A DNA stretch of 14,640 bases, from the IMG/VR virus record IMGVR_UViG_2630968342_000015; one strand, written 5' to 3'. Shown piece by piece: positions 1 through 14,640 of the stretch. Source of the DNA: a virus. Lineage: Duplodnaviria; Heunggongvirae; Uroviricota; Caudoviricetes. A program made the position numbers and the translations under genes. The notes below the pieces were generated by a model. It was not told where the DNA came from. It made no database searches and worked only from the letters and a program-made list of their open reading frames with translations. Within the stretch, counting starts at the first letter, position 1, and each line of letters opens with the position of its first letter.

Positions 1-1218
1 ATGAACAAACTGAGCGATACCTTGCTAAGGAAACTTCATGGTAAGCCAGCGGAGAAAAACACGTTTTATAGTGATGGCGGAAACCTGAGCGTGAAATATT
101 TAACATCAGGGAAATTGACCTGGTATTTCACATACAGGGCCGGAACGGGAAGGGAGACACGACCCGAACGCATTAAGCTGGGAAGTTATCCTGATCTGAG
201 CCTGAAAGCAGCCAGGGAAAAAGCCGCACAGTGTCGCACATGGCTGGCTGAGGGGAAAAATCCACGTCATGAGATGAATTACACCGTACAGGAAGCGTTA
301 AAGCCCGTAACGGTTGGCGATGCGCTCACCTACTGGCTTGAGTATTACGTAAAGGAAAACCGCGTGGATTATATCGCCCTGAAAAGGCGACTTAATAATC
401 ACGTAATACAGCAGATTGGTGCTATGCCGCTGGATAAATGCGAGCTACGGCACTGGCTGGCCTGTTTTGACCAGGTGGCAAAGCGAACGCCTGTTACTGC
501 CGGATTCGTGCTACAGGCGTGCAAACAGGCGCTTAAGTTCTGCCGTAGGCGGCGCTATGCAATCAGCAACGTTCTGGACGATCTGAACGTGGCGGACGTT
601 GGGAAAAAACCGGATATAAGCGAACGTGTCTTAAGTAACAAAGAACTTGGCGAATTATTGCAGGCACTGGACAAAAAAATATTCTCCCCTTACTACGTCG
701 CGTTAATCCGCCTCCTGATTGTCTTCGGAGCCAGAACGGTAGAACTGAGGTTATCGGAGATCGGAGAGTGGGATTTTACGGAAATGCTATGGACCGTTCC
801 GAAGGAGCACAGCAAAACGAAGGTCGCAATATTCCGGCCCATACCGGAAGCGATCCTGCCGTTCGTCACGCAGCTGGTGGAGCAGAACAGGCACACGGGC
901 TTATTGCTGGGGGAAGTGAAACAGGAGGCCAGCGTATCGCAGTATGGAAGATTAGCGCACAGGAGGCTTAATCATCCTCACTGGTCACTGCATGACATCC
1001 GGCGCACCTTTACAACCATGCTGAACGATTTAGGCGTTGATCCGCATGTCGTGGAGCAGCTTACAGGCCACCAGATGCCAGGAATGCAGCGAGTTTATAA
1101 TCATTCCCGTTATCTGGATGCTAAACGCAATGCGCTGGATATGTGGACGGAGCGGTTAGGGATACTGGCGGGAACACATGAAAACGTAACCACGCTACCA
1201 GTAGCCAGAAGAAAATAA
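1..1218 (+). CDS. int: P4-family tyrosine integrase (site-specific recombinase)
   Basis: 405-aa ORF. The N-terminus has the P4-type arm-binding pattern (LSDTLLRKL...FYSDGGNLSVKY...W.FTYR...RIKLGSYPDLSLKAAREKA). The catalytic region has ARTVELR, HDIRRT and a C-terminal tyrosine region (RVYNHSRYLD). Confidence 0.95.
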   Translation: MNKLSDTLLRKLHGKPAEKNTFYSDGGNLSVKYLTSGKLTWYFTYRAGTGRETRPERIKLGSYPDLSLKAAREKAAQCRTWLAEGKNPRHEMNYTVQEALKPVTVGDALTYWLEYYVKENRVDYIALKRRLNNHVIQQIGAMPLDKCELRHWLACFDQVAKRTPVTAGFVLQACKQALKFCRRRRYAISNVLDDLNVADVGKKPDISERVLSNKELGELLQALDKKIFSPYYVALIRLLIVFGARTVELRLSEIGEWDFTEMLWTVPKEHSKTKVAIFRPIPEAILPFVTQLVEQNRHTGLLLGEVKQEASVSQYGRLAHRRLNHPHWSLHDIRRTFTTMLNDLGVDPHVVEQLTGHQMPGMQRVYNHSRYLDAKRNALDMWTERLGILAGTHENVTTLPVARRK

Positions 1219-1235
1219 TTTTTTTCGTGTTTTTT

Positions 1236-1251
1236 CAGTATGCGCATACTG
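1236..1251. repeat. 16-bp perfect palindrome CAGTATGCGCATACTG just downstream of int; function unknown
   Basis: Read directly; the sequence equals its own reverse complement. TATGCG recurs at 1254-1259. Confidence 0.9.
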
Positions 1252-1258
1252 GATATGC

Positions 1259-1310
1259 GAACAGATACAACGTGCAACAATGAGCAACAATGCGGAACAA
1301 CTACGAACAA
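1259..1310 (-). repeat. Array of six TTGTTC-like motifs, five of them on a 10-bp phase (minus-strand orientation); candidate protein-binding array
   Basis: The plus strand reads gaacag/atacaa/caacaa/caacaa/gaacaa/gaacaa, with the last five ending at 1270, 1280, 1290, 1300 and 1310. The reverse complement of 1285-1310 matches 6862-6887 at 22 of 26 positions. Confidence 0.7.
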
Positions 1311-1405
1311 GAGGCGAAAAAGTGTACGGATTTATAAGTAGCTGATTTTTAATGTGTTACTGGTTTTTTATACACTAGCGAATCACTCTTTAAATAGCGA
1401 GAAAA

Positions 1406-1440
1406 AAGGCATGAAACAATATTTTATGCCTTTGTATTAA
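1406..1440 (+). terminator. Hairpin downstream of int; probable int terminator, possibly bidirectional
   Basis: AAGGCATGAAA/TTTTATGCCTT forms an 11-bp stem including one G.U that pairs only in plus-strand RNA, with a 5-nt loop. It is followed by TGTATT on plus. On minus it is followed by a better T-run (TTTTCTC). Confidence 0.5.
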
Positions 1441-1502: not shown

Positions 1503-1531
1503 TTGCCAACTCTGAATCATCCTGACACAAT
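1503..1531 (+). promoter_or_regulatory. Candidate sigma70 promoter for alpA (TTGCCA-17 bp-CACAAT)
   Basis: Hexamers and 17-bp spacing read by eye, about 60 bp upstream of the alpA GTG. No other support. Confidence 0.3.
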
Positions 1532-1592
1532 CAGACACATCCCAACGCAATAGAACACGAAATAACTCTTTAAGAAACGAAAGGGGGCAATA

Positions 1593-1781
1593 GTGTTAAG
1601 CACTGATCGGTTTATACGTGAAAAAGAATGCGAAAAGCTAACAGGCCTTAGCCGCTCATGCCGCTACCGCCTGGAAAAGGCCGGACAATTCCCATCACGT
1701 CGTAAACTTAGCGGTCGTTCCGTTGGCTGGTCTTTATCCGAGGTTCTGGCCTGGAAGGATAGCTGCAAGGCAGTTCATTAA
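1593..1781 (+). CDS. alpA: AlpA-family (MerR-like wHTH) regulator/excisionase
   Basis: 62-aa ORF with a GTG start 5 nt after AAGGGGG. Matches the Phage_AlpA pattern (EKLTGLSRSCRYRLEKAGQFPSRRKLSGRSVGWSLSEVLAW). Sits downstream of int as in P4-like islands and PICIs. Confidence 0.85.
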   Translation: MLSTDRFIREKECEKLTGLSRSCRYRLEKAGQFPSRRKLSGRSVGWSLSEVLAWKDSCKAVH

Positions 1782-2281: not shown

Positions 2282-2473
2282 TTATCCTTTGGGTTCTATA
2301 CCGCGCCGCTTTAGTTCAGTACGCCCCAACTCTTTAAGCCAGTTGGCTAGGCTTATGCCGTCGCTCTGTGCTTCTTTATCGAATTGCTCTTTTAGCTCTG
2401 GAGAAATTCGCATTCTGAATTGTGGGGATTGCCCGTCCCCTTTAGGGCTTTTATCGCGTTTGATTGTTGACAA
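2282..2473 (-). CDS. Arc/Mnt-family ribbon-helix-helix DNA-binding repressor
   Basis: 63 aa, TTG start with AGGTGA 4 nt upstream. SPQFRMRISPELKEQFDKEAQSDGISLANWLKELGRTELKRRGI aligns by eye with P22 Arc (PQFNLRWPREVLDLVRKVAEENGRSVNSEIYQRVMESFKKEGRI). Confidence 0.65.
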   Translation of the reverse strand: MSTIKRDKSPKGDGQSPQFRMRISPELKEQFDKEAQSDGISLANWLKELGRTELKRRGIEPKG

Positions 2474-3124: not shown

Positions 3125-3424
3125 ATGAGAACGTATTTATCTGGCTTTACTGCCAGCGGTTATGCACACCCCAAAATTATCCCCGGCGCTATTTATCTGG
3201 ATAAGAACGGTAACAGAGTAACGGTAAAAGAACTGATGTTTGACCGTGTGTATTTTATTCGTGATGGCTATTCATTTCATAGTTCGCTGAACGTGGAGAT
3301 CTTTATTAGCAGATTCCGGCGGGAAATCCCGCTTTCCAGAAATAACCATGTGTCATGTATGGATGTTGATAAAAAACTACAGGAACTGAAAAACATGATT
3401 GCCGCGTGGAGAGAGCAGAAATGA
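3125..3424 (+). CDS. Hypothetical protein, possibly DUF4222-like
   Basis: 99-aa ORF. GAIYLDKNGNRVTVKELMFDRVYFIRDGY resembles small DUF4222 proteins found upstream of primases in enterobacterial islands (recall only). Confidence 0.55.
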   Translation: MRTYLSGFTASGYAHPKIIPGAIYLDKNGNRVTVKELMFDRVYFIRDGYSFHSSLNVEIFISRFRREIPLSRNNHVSCMDVDKKLQELKNMIAAWREQK

Positions 3425-5238
3425 AAAAAGCGCCAAATTTAAAACACCAGCCGCGTGACAAAATGACGGAAGTCATCATTTTTGCGGGTAGTGATGCGTG
3501 GGCACATGCGAAGCAGTGGCAGGAACAGGACGGGCGACTGGCTGGCGATAACGTGCCACCTGTCTGGCTTGGAGAGCAACAACTTGCCGAACTGGACAAC
3601 CTGCAAATCGTACCGGACGGACGCTATCGCGTGCGTCTCTACCAGGCGGGGTTATTGCGTCCGGGGCTTGTTAATACCATCGGGCAGAAACTGGCAGCGG
3701 CAGGTGTCAGGGATGCTGATTATTACCCTGAAGGAATGCACAGCCAGAAACGGGAGAACTGGCGCGAATATCTGGAACGTGAGCGGGGAGAGCTGGCGGA
3801 AAAGAAAAAGGTAGTTGAACTGCCTGTAAAGAAAAAAGAGCGGGTAAAAGACGATAACGCTTCATCACTGGCGCTTAACCAGATGGGAGCAAGTCAACGC
3901 GGCGAAGTTCTCCTGGCACATTATGGCGGTGAACTGGCGATTCATGCTGACTCTGACACTGTTCACTATTACAACGGCGTTGTATGGGAGCCAGTACAGG
4001 ATAAAGAATTACAGCGAGCTATGGCGCAGATTTTCATTGATGCGGAGATCAGCTATTCGCAGAACGCCATTAAATCGGCGGTCGATACCATGAAGTTAAG
4101 TTTGCCTGTAATGGGGAATACAGCCCGTAACCTGATTGGATTCAGTAACGGTGTTTTTGATACCCGGACAGGCGATTTTCGGGAGCATAACAAAAACGAC
4201 TGGTTGTTAATTGCCAGTGAATTACCTTTCAGCCCACCAGCAGAGGGGGAAACGCTGGCAACACATGCGCCGAATTTCTGGAAGTGGTTACGCCGTTCGG
4301 TGGCTGAGAATGACCGCAAGGCGGATCGCGTACTGGCTGCATTATTCATGGTGCTGGCGAACCGGTACGACTGGCAGTTATTCATTGAGGTAACAGGTCC
4401 AGGGGGAAGTGGTAAAAGCGTGATGGCGGAGATTTGCACCATGCTGGCGGGTAAGGCCAACACGGTATCGGCAAGCATGAAGGCGCTGGAAGATGCCAGG
4501 GAACGCGCGTTAGTGGTTGGCTTTTCGCTGATTATCATGCCGGATATGACCCGTTACGCTGGTGATGGCGCAGGAATTAAGGCCATTACAGGCGGTGACA
4601 AGGTGGCAATCGACCCGAAGCATAAAGCCCCCTACTCAACACGCATTCAGGCGGTAGTGTTGGCGGTGAACAATAACGCCATGTCATTCAGTGACCGCAG
4701 CGGGGGGATTTCACGTCGTCGGGTGATATTCAATTTTTCGGAGGTTGTACCGGAAAACGAACGCGACCCCATGCTGGCAGAAAAAATAGAAGGAGAGCTG
4801 GCGGTTGTGATTCGCCACCTGCTTACTCGTTTTTCTGACCAGGACGCAGCTAAACGCCTGCTGTATGAGCAGCAGAAATCAGAAGAAGCTCTGGTGATAA
4901 AACGCGAGGGCGATTCGCTGGTGGACTTCTGCGGCTATCTCATGTCGTCGGTAATGTGTGATGGTCTGTTAGTGGGTAATGCCGAAATTATTCCGTTCAG
5001 TCCGCGCAGGTATCTTTATCACGCCTATCTGGCATATATGAGGGCACACGGATTCGGTAAACCTGTAACACTGACGCGCTTCGGTAAAGATATGCCGGGG
5101 GCAATGGCGGAATATGGCAGGGAGTATATGAAACGGAAAACGAAGCACGGTTTGCGTTCAAACGTGACACTGACGGAGGAATCAGAAGACTGGATGCCAT
5201 CATGTGTATCGGTCACTAATGACGATAGCAAAAATTAA
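3421..5238 (+). CDS. P4-alpha/D5-type primase-helicase (SF3 helicase with a C-terminal origin-binding region)
   Basis: ATG at 3421 (GGAGAG 7 nt upstream) overlaps the previous stop. Walker A GPGGSGKS at 4396-4419 and Walker B-like LIIMPD. Overall resembles the P4-family primase C-terminal domain. An iteron origin lies immediately 3'. Confidence 0.9.
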   Translation: MKKAPNLKHQPRDKMTEVIIFAGSDAWAHAKQWQEQDGRLAGDNVPPVWLGEQQLAELDNLQIVPDGRYRVRLYQAGLLRPGLVNTIGQKLAAAGVRDADYYPEGMHSQKRENWREYLERERGELAEKKKVVELPVKKKERVKDDNASSLALNQMGASQRGEVLLAHYGGELAIHADSDTVHYYNGVVWEPVQDKELQRAMAQIFIDAEISYSQNAIKSAVDTMKLSLPVMGNTARNLIGFSNGVFDTRTGDFREHNKNDWLLIASELPFSPPAEGETLATHAPNFWKWLRRSVAENDRKADRVLAALFMVLANRYDWQLFIEVTGPGGSGKSVMAEICTMLAGKANTVSASMKALEDARERALVVGFSLIIMPDMTRYAGDGAGIKAITGGDKVAIDPKHKAPYSTRIQAVVLAVNNNAMSFSDRSGGISRRRVIFNFSEVVPENERDPMLAEKIEGELAVVIRHLLTRFSDQDAAKRLLYEQQKSEEALVIKREGDSLVDFCGYLMSSVMCDGLLVGNAEIIPFSPRRYLYHAYLAYMRAHGFGKPVTLTRFGKDMPGAMAEYGREYMKRKTKHGLRSNVTLTEESEDWMPSCVSVTNDDSKN

Positions 5239-5250
5239 ACTTATGGAATA

Positions 5251-5475
5251 ACTGTTCACCACTGTTCACCCTGTCATAAATATCTTTTGTATCAGTATGT
5301 TATAGGGTGAACAGTTATTTATGAACTGTTCACCAAACTATTCACTGTTCACCTTTTTGATTGTTTATTGAGCTTCAAGGGTGAACAGTGGTGAATAGTT
5401 GGTGAATAGTTTTTGTGAAACTGTTCACCCCTTAATATTATGAATTAAAAGATAAAATATCAAAAGGTGAACAGG
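5251..5475. repeat. Origin of replication: about 11 copies of the 10-bp iteron ACTGTTCACC in both orientations around AT-rich DNA
   Basis: Plus-oriented copies at 5251, 5261, 5325, 5344 and 5420, with a degenerate one at 5337. Inverted copies (GGTGAACAGT/GGTGAATAGT) at 5306, 5380, 5390, 5401 and 5466. AT-rich stretch at 5430-5465. Confidence 0.8.
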
Positions 5476-6188: not shown

Positions 6189-6461
6189 ATGGTACATGAC
6201 CGCATAGCGGAAGAACTCGAGGCGAAAGGCTTTTACCGGAGGGCGGCGGCGCGATGGGGTGAAGTCATGCTGCTGGTGGAGACAGACAAGGAACGGCATC
6301 AGGTTACGATGCGACGGCTGGAATGTTCCAGGAAGGCACAGAAGCCACCGGAGCCGCCGGATAACTTCGGAGACCTGAGAAAGGCAGTAGATCGCACTTA
6401 TGCTGAAATGGGTATAGATGGTGTAAGCGATGAAATATGGCGTAATTACCCAGACAGCTAA
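6189..6461 (+). CDS. PerC-family-like transcriptional regulator
   Basis: ATG at 6189 after GAGGGGG; 90 aa. The N-terminal AEELEAKGFYRRAAARWGEVM resembles the PerC/Pch family signature (recall only). Confidence 0.5.
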   Translation: MVHDRIAEELEAKGFYRRAAARWGEVMLLVETDKERHQVTMRRLECSRKAQKPPEPPDNFGDLRKAVDRTYAEMGIDGVSDEIWRNYPDS

Positions 6462-6465
6462 TCAA

Positions 6466-6490
6466 CAGCCGGAGAAATCCGGCTTTTTTT
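6466..6490 (+). terminator. Rho-independent terminator
   Basis: AGCCGGA-GAAA-TCCGGCT followed by seven T. Confidence 0.85.
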
Positions 6491-6585
6491 GCACCAGTTG
6501 AAACGGTATGGCGCATTACCGGGTTTTCGTCACGGTCAGGCATAGTTACTATCTGAAACAAACAGACACAACAGAGGAAAAAACA

Positions 6586-6810
6586 ATGCCGATGAAATTT
6601 GATGAGATATTAAAACAGCGTGATAAATACCATGCTGACAACATGGAGACGATGAGCATCAATGATTACCGCGCATTCCTGGAGACGGGCGCACTGATTG
6701 AAAAGGATCAGCATGGTTTTGTGAGATGTGCTCTGTCCGGTGAAATGCTGGCGGTAAATCCTGAACAGATAGATGCATTGATAGAATTTCTGAAAGGGAT
6801 CAGGGACTGA
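6586..6810 (+). CDS. Hypothetical protein (74 aa), moron-like cassette
   Basis: ATG at 6586, 8 nt after AGAGGA. Flanked by two near-identical terminators. Confidence 0.55.
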   Translation: MPMKFDEILKQRDKYHADNMETMSINDYRAFLETGALIEKDQHGFVRCALSGEMLAVNPEQIDALIEFLKGIRD

Positions 6811-6819
6811 GCACGCATA

Positions 6820-6843
6820 CAGCCGGAGCAATCCGGCTTTTTG
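6820..6843 (+). terminator. Rho-independent terminator (near-duplicate of 6466-6490)
   Basis: AGCCGGA-GCAA-TCCGGCT followed by TTTTT. Confidence 0.85.
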
Positions 6844-6861: not shown

Positions 6862-6896
6862 TTGTTCGTGGTTGTTCCACGTTGTTCACTGACAGG
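6862..6896 (+). repeat. Three TTGTTC motifs on a 10-bp phase upstream of the head operon; candidate activator/Rep-binding site and promoter region
   Basis: TTGTTC at 6862, 6872 and 6882. The 15-mer TTGTTCCACGTTGTT (6872-6886) recurs exactly at 14374-14388. A possible -10 TATTTT lies at 6904-6909. Confidence 0.65.
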
Positions 6897-6964
6897 ATCG
6901 GCATATTTTACCCGAACTGAATCATGAGTATTCTCGCCCGTGGTGCCAGGACGCTGGGGCCACT

Positions 6965-7010: not shown

Positions 7011-7064
7011 AACGATCGGTGCGATTGCTGATTTCCTTATGAAAAACGGTTGAGTTTTTGCCGC

Positions 7065-7102
7065 GTCCTGGAGTTCCTTACTTAACCCCAGGACTTTTTT
7101 TT
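7065..7102 (+). terminator. Intrinsic terminator directly abutting the capsid start codon
   Basis: GTCCTGGAGTT/AACCCCAGGAC gives an 11-bp stem with one mismatch and an 8-nt loop. It is followed by eight T (7095-7102) and then the ATG at 7103. Confidence 0.75.
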
Positions 7103-8260
7103 ATGCCGAGAATAATCGAATTACGCCAGCAGAAAACCGCCATTAAAAATCAGATGCGCGACATGCTGGAGAACGCGGAAAAAGAAAACCGCAGCCTTAA
7201 CGATGCAGAGGGCGCAAAATTTGACGAATTACGCGCTAAAGCTGAATCCCTCGATAAAGACATTTCCCGCCTTGAAGCCATTGCAGACGAAGAGCGCAGC
7301 AAGCCAGGTAAAAGCAGCCAGACCACTGACCCGGCAGAACTCCGCAACTACATCCTGACAGGTGAAACCCGCGCATTAAGTACAGGCGTTCCCGCTGATG
7401 GTGGTTATACCGTTATCCCCGAACTGAACACCGAAATCATGCGAATGCTGACGGATGAATCCACCATGCGCCGCATCTGTACCGTGAAGAAAATCAGCAG
7501 CAACGAGTTTAAGCAGCTTGTTTCCGCTGGCGGTGCGACCGTTAACCACGGTGAAGAGGGTAAGACACGCGAACAGACCAGCACCCCGCAGATTAACGAG
7601 GTGAGCATTAAGCTGTATCCGGTCTATGCGTACCCGCGCACCACACAGGAAATCGTGGATTTTTCCGATGTGGACATCCTTTCATGGCTGACGGGTGAGA
7701 TTGGCGACACCTTCACGGAAACCGAAGAAAGCGATCTGGTTGTGGGCGACGGTGACAAAAAAGCAAAAGGTTTTTTATCCGTACCCCGTGCAGAGAAGAA
7801 CGACAAAGAGCGTGATTTTGGTACGTTGCAGGTAATTAAACCTTCCGAATCTCTGGCGTGGACATCTGCGGACCCGCTGATCGACCTGAAATTTGCATTA
7901 CGTAAAAAATACCGCAAAAACGCGGTCTGGGTGGTTAACTCCACGACGGCGGCAAAACTTCAGAAGGTGAAGAACGCGAACGGTGATTACATCTGGCGCG
8001 ACCGTTTACAGGCGGGTGATCCTGATACGTTGCTGGGCCTTCCGGTCGAATATCTGGAGTTTATGCCTGATAACGTTATTGCCCTGGGTGACTTCAAACG
8101 CGGTTACTACATTGTTGATCACGAAACAGGTGTTCGCACCAGACCGGACAACCTCACAGAGCCGGGCTTCATCAAAATTTTCACGCAGAAATATTTAGGC
8201 GGTGGCGTGGTGGATTCGAACGCGATCAAGATTCTGGAACTGCCACAGGACGACGATTAA
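7103..8260 (+). CDS. HK97-family major capsid protein with an N-terminal delta/scaffold-like coiled coil
   Basis: The N-terminus MPRIIELRQQKTAIKNQMRDMLENAEKENRSLNDAEGAKFDELRAKAESLDKDISRLE is typical of HK97-type MCP delta domains. The body has GGYTVIPE... and ...LVVGDGDKKAKGFL motifs. Confidence 0.9.
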   Translation: MPRIIELRQQKTAIKNQMRDMLENAEKENRSLNDAEGAKFDELRAKAESLDKDISRLEAIADEERSKPGKSSQTTDPAELRNYILTGETRALSTGVPADGGYTVIPELNTEIMRMLTDESTMRRICTVKKISSNEFKQLVSAGGATVNHGEEGKTREQTSTPQINEVSIKLYPVYAYPRTTQEIVDFSDVDILSWLTGEIGDTFTETEESDLVVGDGDKKAKGFLSVPRAEKNDKERDFGTLQVIKPSESLAWTSADPLIDLKFALRKKYRKNAVWVVNSTTAAKLQKVKNANGDYIWRDRLQAGDPDTLLGLPVEYLEFMPDNVIALGDFKRGYYIVDHETGVRTRPDNLTEPGFIKIFTQKYLGGGVVDSNAIKILELPQDDD

Positions 8261-8270
8261 CAGCATACAG

Positions 8271-8299
8271 AAGGGGCTTAAAAGCCCCTTTAGTGTTTT
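8271..8299 (+). terminator. Hairpin with an interrupted U-tract after the capsid gene; probable partial terminator or attenuator
   Basis: AAGGGGCT-TAAA-AGCCCCTT (8-bp stem) followed by TAGTGTTTTA. Confidence 0.5.
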
Positions 8300-8314
8300 A
8301 TGGGTGAAAAAATT

Positions 8315-8872
8315 ATGAAGAGTATGGAAATCCGGTCATCGGAAATCACCACCAGCGCCAGCAACACGCTTACAGGCTACGTTGTTCGCTGGGATAAGCT
8401 TTCAGAGCTGCTATGGGGGGAGTTTTACGAAAAATTCCAGCGGGGAGCGTTTACTGAATGGCTTGCGGCGGGTAATGACGTTCGCGGCCTGTATGAGCAT
8501 GACCACAGCATGTTGCTGGGGCGTACCCGTTCCGGCACGCTGAAACTGGAAGAGGACGAAACAGGGTTACGCTTTGAACTGACCCCACCGGATACCAGTA
8601 CAGGGCGCGACGTTATCGAACTGGTTAAGCGTGGGGACATCTCGGGGATGAGCTTTGGCTTTCGCTCCCGTAAGGATGTATGGGATACCACAACAGATCC
8701 ATGCGTGCGCACCGTGCTGGTGGCGGAACTGTACGAAATTACCGTTACATCGGTACCGGCTTACCCTGATTCCGGCGTGGAGCTGGCCCGCCGTTCCCTG
8801 TATGAGCAGCACCCCGAAAAAATGCCGCGTGCGGATAATCGCCGCTGGTGGGTGGATTTAGCGGGGGTGTGA
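8315..8872 (+). CDS. HK97-family prohead protease (peptidase S78/U35)
   Basis: Family-typical pattern MEIRS...LTGYVVRWDKLSE...FQRGAF...DVRGLYEHD...LGRTRSGTLKLEEDETGLRFELTPPDTSTGRDVIELVKRGDISGMSFGF. The start is uncertain (8300, 8315 or 8324). Confidence 0.9.
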   Translation: MKSMEIRSSEITTSASNTLTGYVVRWDKLSELLWGEFYEKFQRGAFTEWLAAGNDVRGLYEHDHSMLLGRTRSGTLKLEEDETGLRFELTPPDTSTGRDVIELVKRGDISGMSFGFRSRKDVWDTTTDPCVRTVLVAELYEITVTSVPAYPDSGVELARRSLYEQHPEKMPRADNRRWWVDLAGV

Positions 8873-8873
8873 T

Positions 8874-10085
8874 ATGTGGCTTTTCAGAAGAAAAAAAGAG
8901 CAGCGCAGCATGACGCTTGATGAATTTATGGCGCTGGCTGGCACATCGAACACGGGGGCGGGTGAGTACGTATCATCGGGGACAGCGGAATCACTGCCCG
9001 CCGTCATGAACGCCGTGACGGTCATCTCTGAGGCGGTGGCTACCATGCCGTGTTACCTGTACCTGGTACGCAATGAGAAGGGGAAGGAGGCCCGCGAGTG
9101 GCTTGATTCTCATCCGGTCGATCACATCCTCAACGAGCGCCCGAACGCGTGGCAGACTCCCTACCAGTTTAAGCGAATGATGATCCGCCACTGCCTGTTA
9201 AACGGTAATGCTTATGCGGTGATTCAGTGGGGGCGTGATGGTTTTCCGGTGGCTTTACATCCTTACCCGCCGCAGTCGGTGAACGTGGAGCAGACAGGCG
9301 AACACAACTGGCGCTACTGCATCACTGACGCCTACACCGGAAACACCCGCAACTATTTACCGTGGGAGGTTCTCCACCTTCGTTACTCCACGGATGACGG
9401 TTTTATGGGGCGCTCACCTGTAACCATCTGCCGCGAATCGCTGGGGCTTGGGCTGGCCCAACAACGCCACGGCGCGAGCGTGATGCGTGATGGCATGATG
9501 GCGGCAGGGGTTATCACGTCAGGCGAATGGCTGGACGGCGTGAAGGGCAAACAGGCATTAGCCGCACTGGAACGCTACAAAGGGGCCAGAAACGCCGGAA
9601 AAACGCCCATCCTTGAAGGGGGTATGAGCTATCAGCAGCTGGGCATGAGTAATCAGGATGCTGAATGGCTGGCCTCCCGTCGCTTCACCATTGAAGACAT
9701 CGCCCGAATGTTCAACGTCTCGCCGATTTTTCTGCAGGAATACAGCAACAGCACCTACAGCAATTTCAGCGAGGCAAGCCGCGCATTTCTCACCATGACA
9801 ATGCGCCCGTGGCTGGCGAACTTTGAGCAGCAGATAAAAAACGCCCTGCTGGTGGCCTCGCCTGTACCTGGTATCCGGTATCAGGTGGAGTTTGACAGCG
9901 CGGACCTGTTACGGGCCACACCTGGCGAACGCTTTGCCACCTATGAACGCGGCATCAAATCCGGCGTTATGTGCCCGAACGAAGCCCGCGAACGTGAAGG
10001 GCTGTCCCCGCGTGATGGTGGTGATGAGTTCAGCCAGGCATGGAAACAGGAAGTAAAAATCAGCGAGGGAGAAAAACCGGAATGA
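8874..10085 (+). CDS. HK97-family portal protein
   Basis: 403-aa ORF with the size and overall sequence character of Phage_portal family proteins. SD GGGGG lies 6 nt upstream. Sits within the head module. Confidence 0.85.
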   Translation: MWLFRRKKEQRSMTLDEFMALAGTSNTGAGEYVSSGTAESLPAVMNAVTVISEAVATMPCYLYLVRNEKGKEAREWLDSHPVDHILNERPNAWQTPYQFKRMMIRHCLLNGNAYAVIQWGRDGFPVALHPYPPQSVNVEQTGEHNWRYCITDAYTGNTRNYLPWEVLHLRYSTDDGFMGRSPVTICRESLGLGLAQQRHGASVMRDGMMAAGVITSGEWLDGVKGKQALAALERYKGARNAGKTPILEGGMSYQQLGMSNQDAEWLASRRFTIEDIARMFNVSPIFLQEYSNSTYSNFSEASRAFLTMTMRPWLANFEQQIKNALLVASPVPGIRYQVEFDSADLLRATPGERFATYERGIKSGVMCPNEAREREGLSPRDGGDEFSQAWKQEVKISEGEKPE

Positions 10086-10420
10086 ACATAGGGCGACTGC
10101 GTGACAGGGTAACGATTCAGACCCTGAAACAGACCAGGGATATAACCGGCGAAATACTCGAAACGTGGGAGGACGGTCACACACTCTGGGCAAGCGTGAA
10201 CATGATCAGCAGCAAGGAGGCCATTTCATCGGGTGCAGAGCTGGCGATTGGTACCGTAAGGATCTGGATACGGTACCGGAAGGACATCAATGCCACCAGC
10301 CGGATAAAGGTCAGTACGGGGCCGCTGGCGGGGCGTGTACTGAATATCATCGGGCAGCCGCTGCCGGATGCCGCCAGGACACGCCTTGAAATTCTTTGTC
10401 GTGAGGGCGCGGAAAAATGA
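10082..10420 (+). CDS. Head-closure / head-tail adaptor protein (SPP1 gp16-like, Phage_H_T_join)
   Basis: ATG at 10082 overlaps the portal stop (ATGA). MNIGRLRDRVTIQ...WEDGHTLWASV...IRYRKDI...ILCREG is the typical family pattern. Confidence 0.8.
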   Translation: MNIGRLRDRVTIQTLKQTRDITGEILETWEDGHTLWASVNMISSKEAISSGAELAIGTVRIWIRYRKDINATSRIKVSTGPLAGRVLNIIGQPLPDAARTRLEILCREGAEK

Positions 10421-10713
10421 CAGAAGAACTTATCACCCTGGAAGAAGTGAAACTCCATTGCCGCATCGATGGCGACGAGGAAGACCAGTTAATCAGCGGA
10501 TACATCGCCGCATCGCTTGAGGCGTGCCAGATACACATAGGCAGGCGCTTTGATGACGGGCTGGAGTTCACGCCAGCCATAAAGATTGGCTGCATGATGT
10601 TTATCGCTCACCTGTATGAAAATCGCCAGATTGTCGCGGATAACGCAAAAACACGCGTACCCATGACGATTGGTGCACTCTGGACGGCTTACCGTGATGT
10701 GGGGGTGTACTGA
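10417..10713 (+). CDS. gp6-like head-tail connector protein (Phage_connect_1)
   Basis: ATGA overlap with the previous gene. ITLEEVKLHCRIDGDEEDQLISGYIAASLEACQIHIGRRF is the family-typical N-terminus. Confidence 0.8.
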   Translation: MTEELITLEEVKLHCRIDGDEEDQLISGYIAASLEACQIHIGRRFDDGLEFTPAIKIGCMMFIAHLYENRQIVADNAKTRVPMTIGALWTAYRDVGVY

Positions 10714-11153
10714 TGCCGTGGCAACCATTAAGACGATGCACAGAACCAGGCTGTAACAGGCGCGTGAAGTCCGGCAAGTGTGAGGAGCACAGGCGGGCGG
10801 CATGGCGTGCAGAGGATGCCAGACGAGGACACCGCCGCGCGCGTGGGTACTCCAGACAGTGGGACAAATACCGCGCCATGTATCTGAGTAAAAACCCGTT
10901 ATGCGTGCGATGCCTTGAGAAGGGGATATATACGCCCGCCGTGGTGGTGGATCACATTATCCCGATTAATGGCGGTGATGATGTTCTCTTCTGGCCCGAA
11001 TGGAACCATCAGCCATTGTGCCAGGCGTGCCATAACCAGAAAACGAAATGGCTTGATCCGGCAACAAAAAGCAAGCGTGCCGCAGGTGGATTTCGTGAAG
11101 AGGAAGAACGGGCCGCTAACCGCAATAACTGGATGTATGACGCTGATGAATGA
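10713..11153 (+). CDS. Phage HNH endonuclease (packaging-associated)
   Basis: N-terminal Cys cluster CTEPGCNRRVKSGKCEEH and HNH core DHIIPINGGDD...NHQPLCQACHNQKT. Sits upstream of terS as in HK97-like cos phages. Confidence 0.9.
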   Translation: MPWQPLRRCTEPGCNRRVKSGKCEEHRRAAWRAEDARRGHRRARGYSRQWDKYRAMYLSKNPLCVRCLEKGIYTPAVVVDHIIPINGGDDVLFWPEWNHQPLCQACHNQKTKWLDPATKSKRAAGGFREEEERAANRNNWMYDADE

Positions 11154-11319
11154 GCGGGAACAAAACCGCCTTATCCGTGGACTTATAAGGCAGCGTGACG
11201 CATGGAAGACACAGGAAACAGGGCATAAAGATAAAGCGTCAGGACGCGCAGAACGCATCACAGCGAAGCGATTAACCGACCGTGACCGCGAGGTTATGGA
11301 ATGTTTCCGCAATCGCTGA
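11146..11319 (+). CDS. Possible small charged protein (57 aa) in the HNH-terS gap
   Basis: ATG at 11146 overlaps the HNH stop (ATGAATGA). It is the only open frame across 11153-11319. No clear SD and no family recognised. Confidence 0.3.
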   Translation: MNEREQNRLIRGLIRQRDAWKTQETGHKDKASGRAERITAKRLTDRDREVMECFRNR

Positions 11320-11441
11320 TGAGGCTGTATGACGGGGTGGGGGGCGTTTTCAGGACAAACCCGACCCCGCCGGGCACCGACCGCCTCCTCAAATTTTTAT
11401 GCACGGGAATTTTTTGAAAAATAATCTGACGAAAAATAAGC
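11320..11441. other. Candidate cos region
   Basis: Lies between HNH and terS, the HK97-like position for cos. G-rich (11331-11346) and C-rich (11361-11389) segments are partly complementary and are followed by AT-rich DNA. Positional inference only. Confidence 0.35.
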
Positions 11442-11798
11442 ATGGCAAGACCACCGAAAGCCCCCGCCTACCTGGATGACATCGCCGTGAAGCAGTGGCG
11501 GGAAAAATCGCGGCAGCTTGCGGAACGGGGAGACCTGACCCCCGCCGACTGGAGCAATCTGGAACTGTATTGTGTCAACTACTCCATTTACCGGAAAGCC
11601 GTCGCAGACCTTGCGGCGCGCGGGTTCAGCATTGTTAACAGTCAGGGCGGCGAGAGCAGAAACCCCGCATTAAGCGCGAAATCAGACGCTGAAAGGGTGA
11701 TGATAAAAATGGCCTCCTTGCTCGGTTTTGACCCGATAAGCCGCCGTAAAAACCCACCGGAAACAGAAGAAGAGGACGAGCTTGACCGCCTGGAATAA
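11442..11798 (+). CDS. terS: Terminase small subunit, P27 family
   Basis: Family-typical pattern PPKAPAYLDDIAVKQWREKSRQLAERGDLTPADWSNLELYCVNYSIYRKA...NPALSAKSDAERVMIKMASLLGFDPISRRK. Confidence 0.85.
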   Translation: MARPPKAPAYLDDIAVKQWREKSRQLAERGDLTPADWSNLELYCVNYSIYRKAVADLAARGFSIVNSQGGESRNPALSAKSDAERVMIKMASLLGFDPISRRKNPPETEEEDELDRLE

Positions 11799-13443
11799 GT
11801 ACGCAGAAGACGTAAAAACGGGCAAAATTCAGGCCTGTAAACGGTTAAAACAGGCCGTTAAACGGTACTTTTCGGACCTTAAAAGCCCCCTTTACACGTT
11901 CGATCGTGAGGTTGTGGATCGGTTTATTGCCTTTTCCAGGGTGTGCCCGCACGTAAAAGGGCCGATGCGTGGCAGACCCATTGAGCTGGAGCCGTGGCAG
12001 CAGTTCGCCTTTGCGTGCATCCTCGGCTTTAAGGTTAAGGCCACCGGACGGCGCAAATATACGAGCGCCTTTATCGAAGTGCCGCGCAAAAATGCTAAAT
12101 CAACGACCGCCGCGATTCTGGCTAACTGGTTTCTGATTATGGAGAACGGTCAGCAGGATATTTACACCGCAGCGGTGAGCCGTGACCAGGCGAGGATCGT
12201 ATTTGATGATGCGCGTCAGATGTGCATTTTATCCCGACCGTTACGCAGGCGGGTGAATATTCAGGCGCATAAGGTGATACACCCGAAAACCAACAGCCTG
12301 TTAAAGCCGCTGGCAGCAAAAGCGGCAACTATCGAGGGCACAAACCCCAGTCTTTCTATCGTGGACGAATACCACCTACACCCCGACAACGGCGTATATT
12401 CTGCGCTTGAACTGGGGATGGGGGCACGTCCCGAAGGGCTGTTATTTGCCATTACCACATCGGGAAGTAACGTCGTTTCAGCCTGTAAGCAGCATTATGA
12501 TTATTGCTGCCAGATCCTGGACGGCGAAGAGGTTAACGAATCGCTTTTTGTGCTGATTTACGAACTGGACGACGAAAACGAGGTTGATGATCCGGAGATG
12601 TGGATAAAGGCGAACCCTAATATCGATGTTTCCGTGGATCGTGAAAAACTGGCCTCAACCATTCAGAAAGCGCGGGGTATTCCGTCGCAATGGGTGGAGA
12701 TGATGACAAAGCGATTTAATATCTGGTGTCAGGGGACTACCCCGTGGATGGGTAATGGTGCATGGGCTGAGTGTGCCGGAACGTTCACGGAGGAAGATTT
12801 ACACGGTCAGGAGTGTTACGCGGGGCTGGACTTATCATCAACCAGCGATATTTCCAGCGTGTGCTATGCCTTTCCGGTCGGTAAAACCATTATGATGATT
12901 TCCCGTCATTATCTGCCGGAGTTCCAGCTACAGAACCCCGCCAATAAAAACCGCGCTGTCTATCGTCAGTGGGCTAAAGCAGGCTGGATACGCACAACGC
13001 CTGGCGACTGCATTGATTACGACCGGATCAGAGATGACATCATGCAGGACGCGGAGAAATTTAATATCAGGCTGGTGGGCTTTGATACGTGGAACGCCAC
13101 GCATCTCAGAACGCAATTACAGGGGGCAGGTTTTGAGGTGGAGCCGTTCCCGCAAACCTACCTCAGATTCAGTCCGGCGGCGAAATCGTTCGAAGTTTTT
13201 GTTAACCGCAGGGTGATTGTGCATCGTGGCGATCCGGTGTTGTCCTGGTCGATGAGTAACGTCGTGATGCAGAGTGACGCGAACGCCAATATCAAGCCGA
13301 ACAAGAAAAAATCACCGAACAAGATAGACCCGAGCGTGGCGGCGCTGATGGCGTTTGGTACATTCCAGGCAGAGCATGAGGATTTTGCTTTTGATATAAG
13401 CGACAGCCACCGCCAGAAACTGGAAGAATTTAGCGGGGTGTAA
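11782..13443 (+). CDS. terL: Terminase large subunit (Terminase_1 family)
   Basis: 553 aa. TTG start with GAGGA 5 nt upstream; no ATG or GTG is available between the upstream in-frame stop and 11782. Walker A-like VPRKNAKST and Walker B-like LSIVDEYH. Confidence 0.9.
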   Translation: MTAWNKYAEDVKTGKIQACKRLKQAVKRYFSDLKSPLYTFDREVVDRFIAFSRVCPHVKGPMRGRPIELEPWQQFAFACILGFKVKATGRRKYTSAFIEVPRKNAKSTTAAILANWFLIMENGQQDIYTAAVSRDQARIVFDDARQMCILSRPLRRRVNIQAHKVIHPKTNSLLKPLAAKAATIEGTNPSLSIVDEYHLHPDNGVYSALELGMGARPEGLLFAITTSGSNVVSACKQHYDYCCQILDGEEVNESLFVLIYELDDENEVDDPEMWIKANPNIDVSVDREKLASTIQKARGIPSQWVEMMTKRFNIWCQGTTPWMGNGAWAECAGTFTEEDLHGQECYAGLDLSSTSDISSVCYAFPVGKTIMMISRHYLPEFQLQNPANKNRAVYRQWAKAGWIRTTPGDCIDYDRIRDDIMQDAEKFNIRLVGFDTWNATHLRTQLQGAGFEVEPFPQTYLRFSPAAKSFEVFVNRRVIVHRGDPVLSWSMSNVVMQSDANANIKPNKKKSPNKIDPSVAALMAFGTFQAEHEDFAFDISDSHRQKLEEFSGV

Positions 13444-14031: not shown

Positions 14032-14051
14032 GAGTTGCAGATCTGCAACTC
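14032..14051. repeat. 20-bp perfect palindrome GAGTTGCAGATCTGCAACTC
   Basis: Read directly; the sequence equals its own reverse complement. Confidence 0.9.
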
Positions 14052-14071: not shown

Positions 14072-14142
14072 TACCCGTAGTTTGGGTAGTAAGAGTAACA
14101 CCCAGATTTTGGGTCTTACTCGTGATACCCAAATTTGGGGTA
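14072..14142. repeat. Three 17-bp palindromic sites (T)ACCC-N7-GGGT(A) with centres exactly 27 bp apart; operator-like or tandem RNA hairpins
   Basis: TACCCgtagtttGGGTA 14072-14088, cACCCagattttGGGTc 14099-14115, TACCCaaatttgGGGTA 14126-14142. Centres at 14080, 14107 and 14134. Confidence 0.75.
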
Positions 14143-14363: not shown

Positions 14364-14398
14364 CTTGTGTCTATTTGTTCCACGTTGTTTCATACAGT
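14364..14398 (+). repeat. Three TTGT-core motifs on a 10-bp phase near the right end; homolog of 6862-6896
   Basis: TTGTGT 14364, TTGTTC 14374, TTGTTT 14384. Shares an exact 15-mer with 6872-6886. Confidence 0.65.
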
Positions 14399-14407
14399 GC
14401 ACCGAAC

Positions 14408-14430
14408 GGTGTAGTCACTGGTGTAGTCAT
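14408..14430 (+). repeat. Tandem direct repeat GGTGTAGTCA x2 (12-bp period); candidate integrase arm-type sites
   Basis: Copies at 14408-14417 and 14420-14429, about 70-90 bp from the presumed junction. Confidence 0.4.
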
Positions 14431-14473
14431 TTTGCGATTTTTGGCACTTTTTGCGGTGAAAATTATTTAATTA

Positions 14474-14486: not shown

Positions 14487-14640
14487 TGTGAAATAAGTTA
14501 TATATAACAGCAATAAATAATGCGAGAATAAACGGCACGATGATCTCGGCGGCAAAACGGATACCGCAGAGAATAATGACCAGCATTCCCAACATAATGA
14601 CGATTTTTAGGCCATTGAGCGTGATGATCGGCTTTGCCAT
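14476..14640 (-). pseudogene. tqsA: Truncated 5' fragment of a tqsA/ydgG-like AI-2E (PerM) family permease gene, disrupted by the island
   Basis: The minus-strand ATG at 14640 gives [46 protein letters not shown], which matches my recollection of the E. coli TqsA N-terminus. It then diverges (YNLFHITR) to a stop at 14476-14478. Too short (54 aa) to appear in the ORF track. Confidence 0.55.

Follow-up and report, generated by a model that had tools for sequence, protein, structure and literature searches.

A helically phased TTGTNN repeat array behind the integrase gene of a capsid-forming PICI as a candidate AlpA operator

The element and the int–alpA region

The stretch of DNA analysed here, referred to as the window, comprises 14,640 nucleotides (IMG/VR record IMGVR_UViG_2630968342_000015). 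It represents a capsid-forming PICI (cf-PICI) satellite, which is a relative of EcCIEDL933 and is inserted in tqsA. In E. coli G1/2, a segment inserted in tqsA matches the window with 100% identity. About 190 bp of the element, among them the attL arm and the region of the int promoter, precede the window, and the int start given in RefSeq is found 12 nt upstream of it. The layout of the window is the same as that of the O157:H7 cf-PICI at roxA-phoQ (EcCIEDL933 type). The main genes and the right end of the element are the following:

1..1218, plus strand: int, tyrosine integrase with an N-terminal Arm-DNA-bind_3 domain
1593..1781, plus strand: alpA, 62-aa PF05930 winged-helix protein with an excisionase fold, the proposed binder of the repeats described below
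3406-5238: primase gene, followed by the GGTGAACAGT repeats at 5237-5454
7058-13443: HK97-type capsid/protease/portal/HNH/TerS/TerL module
14504..14512: probable att core ATAACAGCA, common to the left junction in tqsA

The region between int and alpA is AT-rich (28-40% GC), and 887 of 5426 complete E. coli genomes contain a region of the window's type. It contains the following features:

1219..1235, plus strand: T7-CGTG-T6 tract directly 3′ of the int stop codon, near-invariant, with two phased A/T tracts
1236-1251: perfect 16-bp palindrome CAGTATGCGCATACTG, once per element, lineage-specific
1259..1264, minus strand: sixth repeat unit CTGTTC, out of phase with a 6-bp offset
1265..1310, minus strand: array A, five TTGTNN hexamers with an exact 10-bp period, the strongest array of the element
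1405..1433, plus strand: conserved hairpin, preceded by an A-run and followed by a T-run
1503..1531, plus strand: putative alpA promoter, TTGCCA-17-CACAAT, with TG before the -10
1524..1560, minus strand: array A2, degenerate phased units TTGTGT, ATGTGT, TTGCGT and TCGTGT

The hairpin at 1405-1433 folds better on the plus strand (-12.9 kcal/mol with a z of -4.35) than on the minus strand (-9.3), and its positions change from A-T to G.T to G-C among the relatives. It probably serves as the int terminator and seems to be bidirectional. With the hairpin as terminator, array A is enclosed by the stop codon of int on one side and its terminator on the other.

The array had originally been described as being immediately followed by a perfect 16-bp palindrome. 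The palindrome itself is confirmed, but it is not strictly adjacent, as 7 bp separate it from the CTGTTC unit. The expectation per window is about 0.22 perfect palindromes of 16 bp, and another, unrelated one occurs at 14034; the palindrome taken alone therefore carries little weight. It is present in the clade that is at least 88% identical to the window, which comprises 733 genomes. The sister clade (loci L003-5 and L018-19) is without the palindrome and has a sixth in-phase unit in its place, and EcCICFT073, judged from primer sequence, is grouped with the sister clade and likewise is without it. In the O157:H7 strain F7508 the palindrome is imperfect (CAGCATGCGCATACTG). Being restricted to one lineage, imperfect in O157:H7 and missing from the EcCICFT073 clade, the palindrome is probably dispensable, and it is not a conserved partner of the array. 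The CTGTTC unit is probably a decayed unit resulting from a 4-bp deletion, the sister clade having six in-phase units, and the two int-proximal units appear to have been rearranged locally to give CTGTTC and the palindrome. Two further functions were considered for the palindrome. As an intrinsic terminator it was rejected because the T-run precedes the hairpin on the plus strand and an A-run comes after it on the minus strand, and the scan did not call it. The consensus of the LexA box is CTGT-N8-ACAG. The palindrome reads CAGT-N8-ACTG, with the essential CTG/CAG triplets swapped, and was rejected as a LexA box as well.

Anatomy and conservation of array A

Read on the minus strand from 1310 to 1259, the sequence is TTGTTC gtag TTGTTC cgca TTGTTG ctca TTGTTG cacg TTGTAT CTGTTC. 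The five units of array A are thus TTGTTC, TTGTTC, TTGTTG, TTGTTG and TTGTAT. The original prediction had reported five motifs on a 10-bp phase, a sixth at a 6-bp offset and a match to the stretch 6862-6887 at 22 of 26 positions; each of these statements is correct, and the repeat search returned the same pair as 25 nt at 88%. The pattern TTGTTSN4TTGTTS is matched six times in the window against 0.42 matches expected, and none of 200 shuffles reached six. A run of at least three phased TTGT units appeared in none of 500 shuffles.

The variability of array A was assessed over 11 E. coli variants and 50 unique IMG/VR variants. Only 1 of 44 columns is variable in the TTGT core, compared with 29 of 66 at unit positions 5-10 (Fisher p = 4.5e-7), and unit position 7 is C or G in all variants. 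The relatives carry five to six units; one variant contains an exact duplication of a single 10-bp unit, and in the O157:H7 cf-PICIs one unit has decayed. The retention of the TTGT core and of the 10-bp register through indels points to protein sites for which the helical register matters. Such a pattern does not fit a coding sequence or a decaying relic. It is under selection, and the earlier suggestion of a regulatory or high-affinity site for the protein that reads the other arrays belongs to the right class of ideas. Array A is absent in the loci L020-L022 and in the IMG/VR relatives with 59-66% AlpA identity, the int–alpA regions of which differ. As these other intergenic types do without it, array A is not essential to the int/alpA module as such.

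Array A lies upstream of the alpA promoter, its end being 193-205 bp from the -35. The promoter scan and the alignment of the relatives gave no convincing promoter downstream of array A in either direction. Neither of two minus-strand candidates, TTTAAA-16-TATAAA (1396-1367) and TTTACA-17-GATAAA (1486-1458), has the -7 T or was called by the scan, and on the plus strand nothing just to the right of array A is conserved in the alignment. The antisense control of int that had been proposed, with array A as an upstream activating site, thus finds no sequence support. A comparison of the whole window with Rfam matched no family.

Related arrays in the element

Array A belongs to a family of TTGTNN arrays with members at several places in the element. 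Within the window, the following features are relevant in addition to those listed above:

6862..6887, plus strand: array B, three TTGTTC units, directly after the terminator 6821-6838
6907-6912 and 6929-6934: putative capsid-operon promoter, TTTACC and TATTCT with a spacer of 16
14365..14390, plus strand: array C, three units, in the attR arm
14408..14431, plus strand: tandem 12-bp motif GGTGTAGTCACT GGTGTAGTCATT, candidate Int arm-type sites in the attR arm, with a partner upstream of int

A further array of four units, that of the attL arm, is situated just upstream of int outside the window (flanked locus L001, 2899-2934). The assignment of array A to the same motif family as arrays B and C, made in the original prediction, is supported, and so is its larger size: array A has five units and reaches 51 bits with the weight matrix, against 31-32 bits for the other two. 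Among the fetched loci, the TTGTNN motif is found in both att arms of every relative, across four integration sites. The att arms contain three to four units and the capsid promoter three. The arrays of the att arms include cacg spacers, as array A does. Array A had also been considered an unlikely att arm, and this view is borne out by its distance of about 1.35 kb from the attL core and by the lack of an Int arm-type doublet.

Array B, too, is away from the element ends: it sits upstream of the putative capsid-operon promoter and ends 18-19 bp upstream of its -35. The homologous capsid promoter of L005, TTTACA-16-TATGTT, was called by the scan. The units of array B are located near -54, -64 and -74 of this predicted sigma-70-like promoter, which is the geometry of an activator.

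Array A2, which the original prediction did not list, has the orientation of array A and spans the -10 of the putative alpA promoter into the leader. The number of its units changes among the relatives by exact 10-bp indels. The -35 of the alpA promoter is invariant among the relatives and the spacer is not conserved. The distance from array A to A2 is 220, 221, 223, 224 or 232 bp, corresponding to about 21 or 22 turns, with a loose phase and too few independent values for significance. Relative to the predicted alpA promoter, neither array A nor A2 is at a classical activator position.

Several candidate binders could be set aside. The replication initiator, listed among the possible binders in the original prediction, is unlikely because a separate set of iterons, GGTGAACAGT in inverted and direct orientation, follows the primase gene at 5237-5454, where TTGTTC arrays are absent. 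The conserved small ORF upstream of array B was rejected because it is present in relatives without array B, and the PerC homologue because it is missing from relatives that retain array B.

Candidate integrase arm-type sites

Both att arms share a module of 76 nt, in which a TTGTNN array is followed by the 12-bp doublet. In attL the doublet starts 7 bp past the last TTGTNN unit. The doublet is confined to the att arms, where it forms four half-sites, and it covaries with the first ~60 residues of Int, which correspond to the Arm-DNA-bind_3 domain. At least four types can be distinguished:

GTCACT: loci L001 and L005, Int N-terminal ...VKYLTSGKLTWYF
GTTAAT: loci L002-4, L006 and L020, Int N-terminal ...VRHSTSGLLTWYF
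TGTGTGGTCAGT: locus L022, Int N-terminal different
TGTGTATTGCAC: loci L021/L092, Int N-terminal different

Locus L005 is mosaic: it is like L004 in its catalytic domain, core site and AlpA, and like L001 in its Int N-terminus and in the doublets of both arms. This combination speaks against simple linkage. The GTCACT of the doublet is also contained in the lambda arm-type sites. Owing to its covariation with the Int N-terminus, this GTCACT and a geometry like that of the published motif described below, the doublet can be assigned to Int, and TTGTTC is left for a second recombination protein. The TTGTNN motif is constant across the four Int N-terminal types and is also present at promoters, which indicates that it represents the sites of another protein.

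A motif of this kind has been described before. In helper-embedded PICIs, Mageeney et al. 2023 reported a doubled attP motif that is likewise a tandem of 12 bp and has a similar placement, at about -81 and +132 from the attP centre; the copies reported here start at -100 and +133. The loci L021/L092 carry exactly the published tgTGTATTGCa, twice. The motif was called unique to HE-PICIs by Mageeney et al. 2023, who mention neither adjacent TTGTTC arrays nor arrays outside attP.

AlpA as the candidate binding protein

AlpA matches PF05930 with 63 bits. The best match of its AlphaFold model (pLDDT 87) is the GIsul2 excisionase 8c3t with a TM of 0.84/0.91, and further structural matches are RdfS, Pukovnik Xis and TorI. 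The gene is the sole HTH gene annotated in every related element fetched. In EcCICFT073, the over-expression of AlpA alone leads to Int-dependent excision and to the activation of PalpA-lacZ (PMC6092414). In the PICMI satellites AlpA, which is TorI/Xis-like, is necessary and sufficient for excision (PMC10803314). The primers of the reporters that respond to AlpA and to the helper begin in the int 3′ end, and arrays A and A2 are thus part of the reporter fragments. A plasmid containing only the intergenic region and alpA is enough for helper phages to induce alpA (PMC6092414). The activity of Pint in EcCICFT073 is unaffected by AlpA (PMC6092414). The attL array lies at the Pint region of EcCICFT073 despite this non-response.

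The relation between the motif and AlpA was followed through more distant elements. The TTGTTC of the att arms is unchanged in L020 and L022 despite an AlpA identity of only 55-66%, and the helper-embedded cf-PICI L021/L092 has retained array B with different AlpA-like proteins. The recognition-helix region of AlpA, TGLSRSxRY, is largely conserved among divergent AlpAs, which makes an unchanged specificity plausible. As the motif stays constant while AlpA varies, there is no positive covariation between the two, and on this point a conserved host or helper factor fits equally well. The control regions of alpA are more diverse. Locus L014 (60% AlpA identity) contains a different phased array, CTTGGTAT in three copies, upstream of alpA, and L010, one of the relatives with 60-66% AlpA identity, has no phased array near alpA. 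The IMG/VR relatives with 59-66% AlpA identity are without the intergenic arrays and possess a different alpA control region, with a hairpin abutting the ATG and GTGATATCAC palindromes. The search for AlpA homologues returned only 16 matches, most of them close, and the scan of genome contigs for AlpA only three loci, two of which are without int–alpA synteny or arrays. An exact IMG/VR scan for three phased TTGTTY units led to 120 mostly unrelated contigs, with AlpA in only 2 of them; the pattern alone is therefore not diagnostic. Clear phased arrays were not found in CP4-57, the element of the founding AlpA. In lambda attP no comparable phased TTGT array was found, so that cross-recognition by a helper Xis is without sequence support.

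Proposed function of array A and alternative explanations

We propose, with moderate confidence, that array A consists of five to six helically phased AlpA operators and is part of an element-wide excisionase-regulator system. Apart from the Int doublet, the att arms contain no other repeats besides TTGTNN, and AlpA together with Int suffices for excision without a helper (PMC6092414, PMC10803314); the arms must consequently carry AlpA sites. By this elimination and by analogy with other excisionases, AlpA is most likely the binder of the arrays; the contribution of array A itself is an inference. The arrays have the properties of excisionase operators: they are direct repeats with a 10-bp period and at least three adjacent units, and copies in the att arms lie beside Int sites. 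The element encodes a winged-helix protein of the RDF family, and arrays are located at predicted promoters away from att. Units of 6 bp, a period of 10 bp and at least three adjacent units are what is found at the sites of Apl, Cox and TorI (PMC7498355, PMC3936717, PMC2951348).

According to this proposal, AlpA would assemble cooperatively into a DNA-bending filament on short direct repeats spaced by one helical turn. Its binding at both att arms, beside the Int doublets, would determine the directionality of recombination. Upstream of the capsid-operon promoter it would activate the packaging genes, and in the int–alpA intergenic region it would control alpA itself. Array A may act as a strong distal operator and A2 as a weak proximal operator that overlaps the alpA promoter. 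Array A would be filled first and nucleate AlpA binding. The two arrays, about 21 helical turns apart and in the same orientation, could then produce an AlpA-dependent response of the alpA promoter through bending, looping or the relief of silencing of the AT-rich region. At high AlpA levels, A2 could provide negative feedback.

A less probable explanation, which nevertheless deserves serious attention, is that the arrays are bound by a conserved host protein or by the inducer of the helper phage, array A being part of the receptor for the helper at alpA. The candidates for such a binder are a response regulator of the OmpR/PhoB type that reads 10-bp tandem repeats and a helper excisionase. 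TorR boxes read CTGTTCATAT. The invariance of the motif across AlpAs differing by up to 45% and across Int types is in line with this explanation, as are the odd positions of arrays A and A2 for a classical activator and the helper induction of alpA from the plasmid with the intergenic region only, the inducer being unnamed in the literature searched (PMC6092414). On the other hand, AlpA and Int suffice for helper-free excision (PMC6092414, PMC10803314), the att arms are without another repeated motif besides the Int-linked doublet, the recognition-helix region of AlpA is largely conserved, and lambda attP has no comparable TTGT array.

It is rather unlikely that array A merely serves as a titration sink, soaking up leaky AlpA so that excision and autoactivation start above a threshold, with no direct effect on a promoter. 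The array is the largest and best-matching of the element (51 against 31-32 bits), it adjoins the alpA gene and lies away from any recognisable promoter in its own orientation, and RDFs of this kind, which bind cooperatively, require three or more adjacent sites (PMC7498355). However, satellites with other intergenic regions do without such an array. A sink is moreover compatible with the AlpA-operator reading, and a sink and a distal operator look alike at the sequence level. A further, improbable reading regards arrays A and A2 as the cis receptor of the helper signal in Gram-negative PICIs: a winged-helix protein encoded by the helper, such as its own excisionase, or a response regulator of the host would nucleate on the strong array A, with AlpA then taking over. 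If this were true, helper induction, autoactivation of alpA, excision and expression of the capsid operon would all be linked by a single phased-repeat code.

There is little to recommend the view that array A is a decaying att-arm or slippage relic, or that it acts as RNA in the int 3′ UTR. It resembles the arrays of the att arms down to the cacg spacers, it includes an out-of-phase unit in the window and a decayed one in O157:H7, and int transcription that continued to the hairpin at 1405-1433 would pass through it. Against this stand the strong asymmetry between TTGT and spacer positions, the maintenance of the 10-bp register through indels and the negative Rfam result; a period of 10 nt is meaningful for B-DNA and not for RNA or coding sequence. 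Finally, the TTGTTC repeats are very unlikely to be Int arm-type sites, with array A as an extra Int-binding region used for instance in Int autoregulation. In favour of this reading, Int possesses an arm-binding domain, the repeats occur in both att arms and IntS of KplE1 represses its own promoter through arm sites (PMC2951348). Against it, the motif that varies together with the Int N-terminus is the 12-bp doublet and not TTGTTC; the doublet is found solely in the arms and has the lambda-like GTCACT. TTGTTC also occurs at the capsid promoter and does not change among the four Int N-terminal types, and array A is ~1.35 kb from the attL core.

Significance and comparison with known systems

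AlpA is the master switch of the Gram-negative PICIs and cf-PICIs. An AlpA operator has not been reported in the literature searched, and neither TTGTNN as an AlpA operator of PICIs or cf-PICIs nor an array behind int was found there. If TTGTNN is the AlpA operator, it offers a concrete, mutable motif for work on PICIs. The regulon predicted in that case comprises the att arms, the alpA promoter region and the promoter of the cf-PICI packaging operon, including that of EcCIEDL933, and one protein of 62 aa could couple excision, autoactivation and capsid gene expression. The array after int is one piece of this wider picture. Separately, the "doubled" attP motif is assigned to the arm-binding domain of Int.

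The closest parallels of the proposed AlpA-operator system are found among phage and satellite excisionases. The Apl protein of phage 186 uses six-bp direct-repeat operators 10-11 bp apart, in sets of three to seven units, at att and at a distant promoter (PMC7498355). Seven operators lie between pR and pL and five at attP, and at least three adjacent ones are needed for efficient binding (PMC7498355). Unlike array A, the distant Apl array is placed between face-to-face promoters and represses both; array A is behind int at a distance of ~195 bp from the promoter of alpA, and the reported action of AlpA is activation. P2 Cox and P4 Vis are multifunctional excisionases that occupy at least six phased boxes and bend or wrap the DNA (PMC3936717). 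They repress one promoter, activate another and direct excision, with an orientation of the boxes that depends on the target (PMC3936717). The targets of P2 Cox are Pe/Pc, attP and P4 PLL. P4 Vis is an AlpA-like protein of another E. coli satellite (PMC6092414). P2 Cox differs in that it recognises a 9-bp box, TTAAAG/CNCA, and is supplied by the helper phage rather than by the satellite. An array at the int 3′ end is on record for neither Cox nor Vis.

TorI of KplE1/HK620 binds GTTCG-type pentamers with a 10-bp period in attL, abutting the int promoter (PMC2951348), and three GTTCG copies at this period could be seen directly in the attL sequence of KplE1. In contrast to the arrays described here, TorI sites are known only in att regions, and the identity of TorI and AlpA is only 26%. 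The AlpA antiterminator of Pseudomonas aeruginosa belongs to the same Pfam family and is a small positive regulator acting through a promoter DNA element (PMC7969949, PMC9371919). Its element, however, is a single GGGACGN5GGTA between the -35 and the -10, and phased arrays are not involved. Phased excisionase operators at att sites and at remote promoters are well known, and what appears new here, as far as the literature searched shows, is TTGTNN as a candidate operator and the array located behind int.

Region upstream of the capsid/packaging operon

The following features were found in the region that precedes the capsid/packaging operon.

6189-6461, PerC-family transcriptional activator gene (PF06069, E = 9e-45)
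6465-6488 and 6819-6842, two near-identical copies of a terminator hairpin (ACAGCCGGAG(A/C)AATCCGGCTTTTT), 354 bp apart
6556-6571, minus strand, two phased units, TTGTGTCTGT TTGTTT
6862-6934, three TTGTTC units (array B) and a sigma-70-like promoter, with a terminator preceding the units

The three TTGTTC units are located 19 bp upstream of the predicted sigma-70-like promoter of the operon. The order of terminator, TTGTTC units and promoter is kept in cf-PICIs that carry other int/alpA modules (loci L005, L021/L092, L022 and L228). As judged from the sequence, this conserved order suggests that a separate, regulated promoter serves the packaging operon. Upstream of array B, all relatives contain a conserved 74-aa ORF (6586-6810), which is flanked on both sides by the copies of the duplicated terminator hairpin. 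The TTGTGTCTGT TTGTTT units lie directly upstream of the ribosome-binding site of this ORF, in the same orientation and position as the degenerate array A2 has to alpA. The PerC-family gene is also present in the O157:H7 relatives and is missing in other cf-PICIs retaining array B.

int 3′ end and alpA upstream region

Two further sequence elements were identified between the int stop codon and position 2338, and a phased array was found in the metagenomic element L014.

1219-1235, T7-CGTG-T6 tract directly 3′ of the int stop codon
1385-1394, 1565-1574, 2101-2110 and 2329-2338, plus strand, ACTCTTTAAG-type repeats
L014 3214-3256, three copies of CTTGGTAT phased at 10 bp, then two copies in inverted orientation

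The T7-CGTG-T6 tract is near-invariant across all variants, and the spacers of the adjoining array vary freely. The tract may represent bent DNA or a component of int 3′ end formation. The four occurrences of ACTCTTTAAG, one of which reads ACTCTTTAAA, are all on the plus strand within 1 kb (0.45 expected). One copy is located in the alpA leader and another directly upstream of the int terminator hairpin.

In the diverged IMG/VR relatives L216-L227, whose AlpA proteins show 59-66% identity, a strong hairpin (GCCCTCG...CGAGGGC) with a T-run abuts the alpA start codon. Palindromes of the GTGATATCAC type also precede alpA in several of these loci; the position noted for these upstream features is about 40 nt from alpA. 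The sequences point to a different type of alpA control in L216-L227, which is possibly termination-based. In L014, whose AlpA is 60% identical, the CTTGGTAT array precedes alpA by about 70-100 bp. This array differs from the phased array of the element studied here and occupies an analogous place near alpA.

Replication origin candidate and right-end repeats

5237-5454, dense GGTGAACAGT-type repeats, direct and inverted, directly 3′ of the primase gene
14034-14049, second perfect 16-bp palindrome, GTTGCAGATCTGCAAC
14072-14142, imperfect inverted repeat of 33 nt

The GGTGAACAGT-type repeat set, which is separate from the TTGTTC arrays, is likely to be the replication origin. The right end of the element is non-coding and carries, upstream of the attR arm, both the GTTGCAGATCTGCAAC palindrome and the 33-nt inverted repeat.

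att-arm doublet and integrase

14408-14431 (attR arm) and L001 2942-2965 (attL arm), tandem 12-bp motif, two copies of GGTGTAGTCACT

The GGTGTAGTCACT doublets start at about -100 and +133 relative to the core centre. Over at least four types, the doublet at this position covaries with the N-terminal arm-binding domain of Int. A ‘doubled motif’ has been described as unique to helper-embedded PICIs (Mageeney et al. 2023). Because the GGTGTAGTCACT doublet shares its geometry with that motif, the doubled-motif class seems to extend beyond helper-embedded PICIs and to be general to this integrase family.
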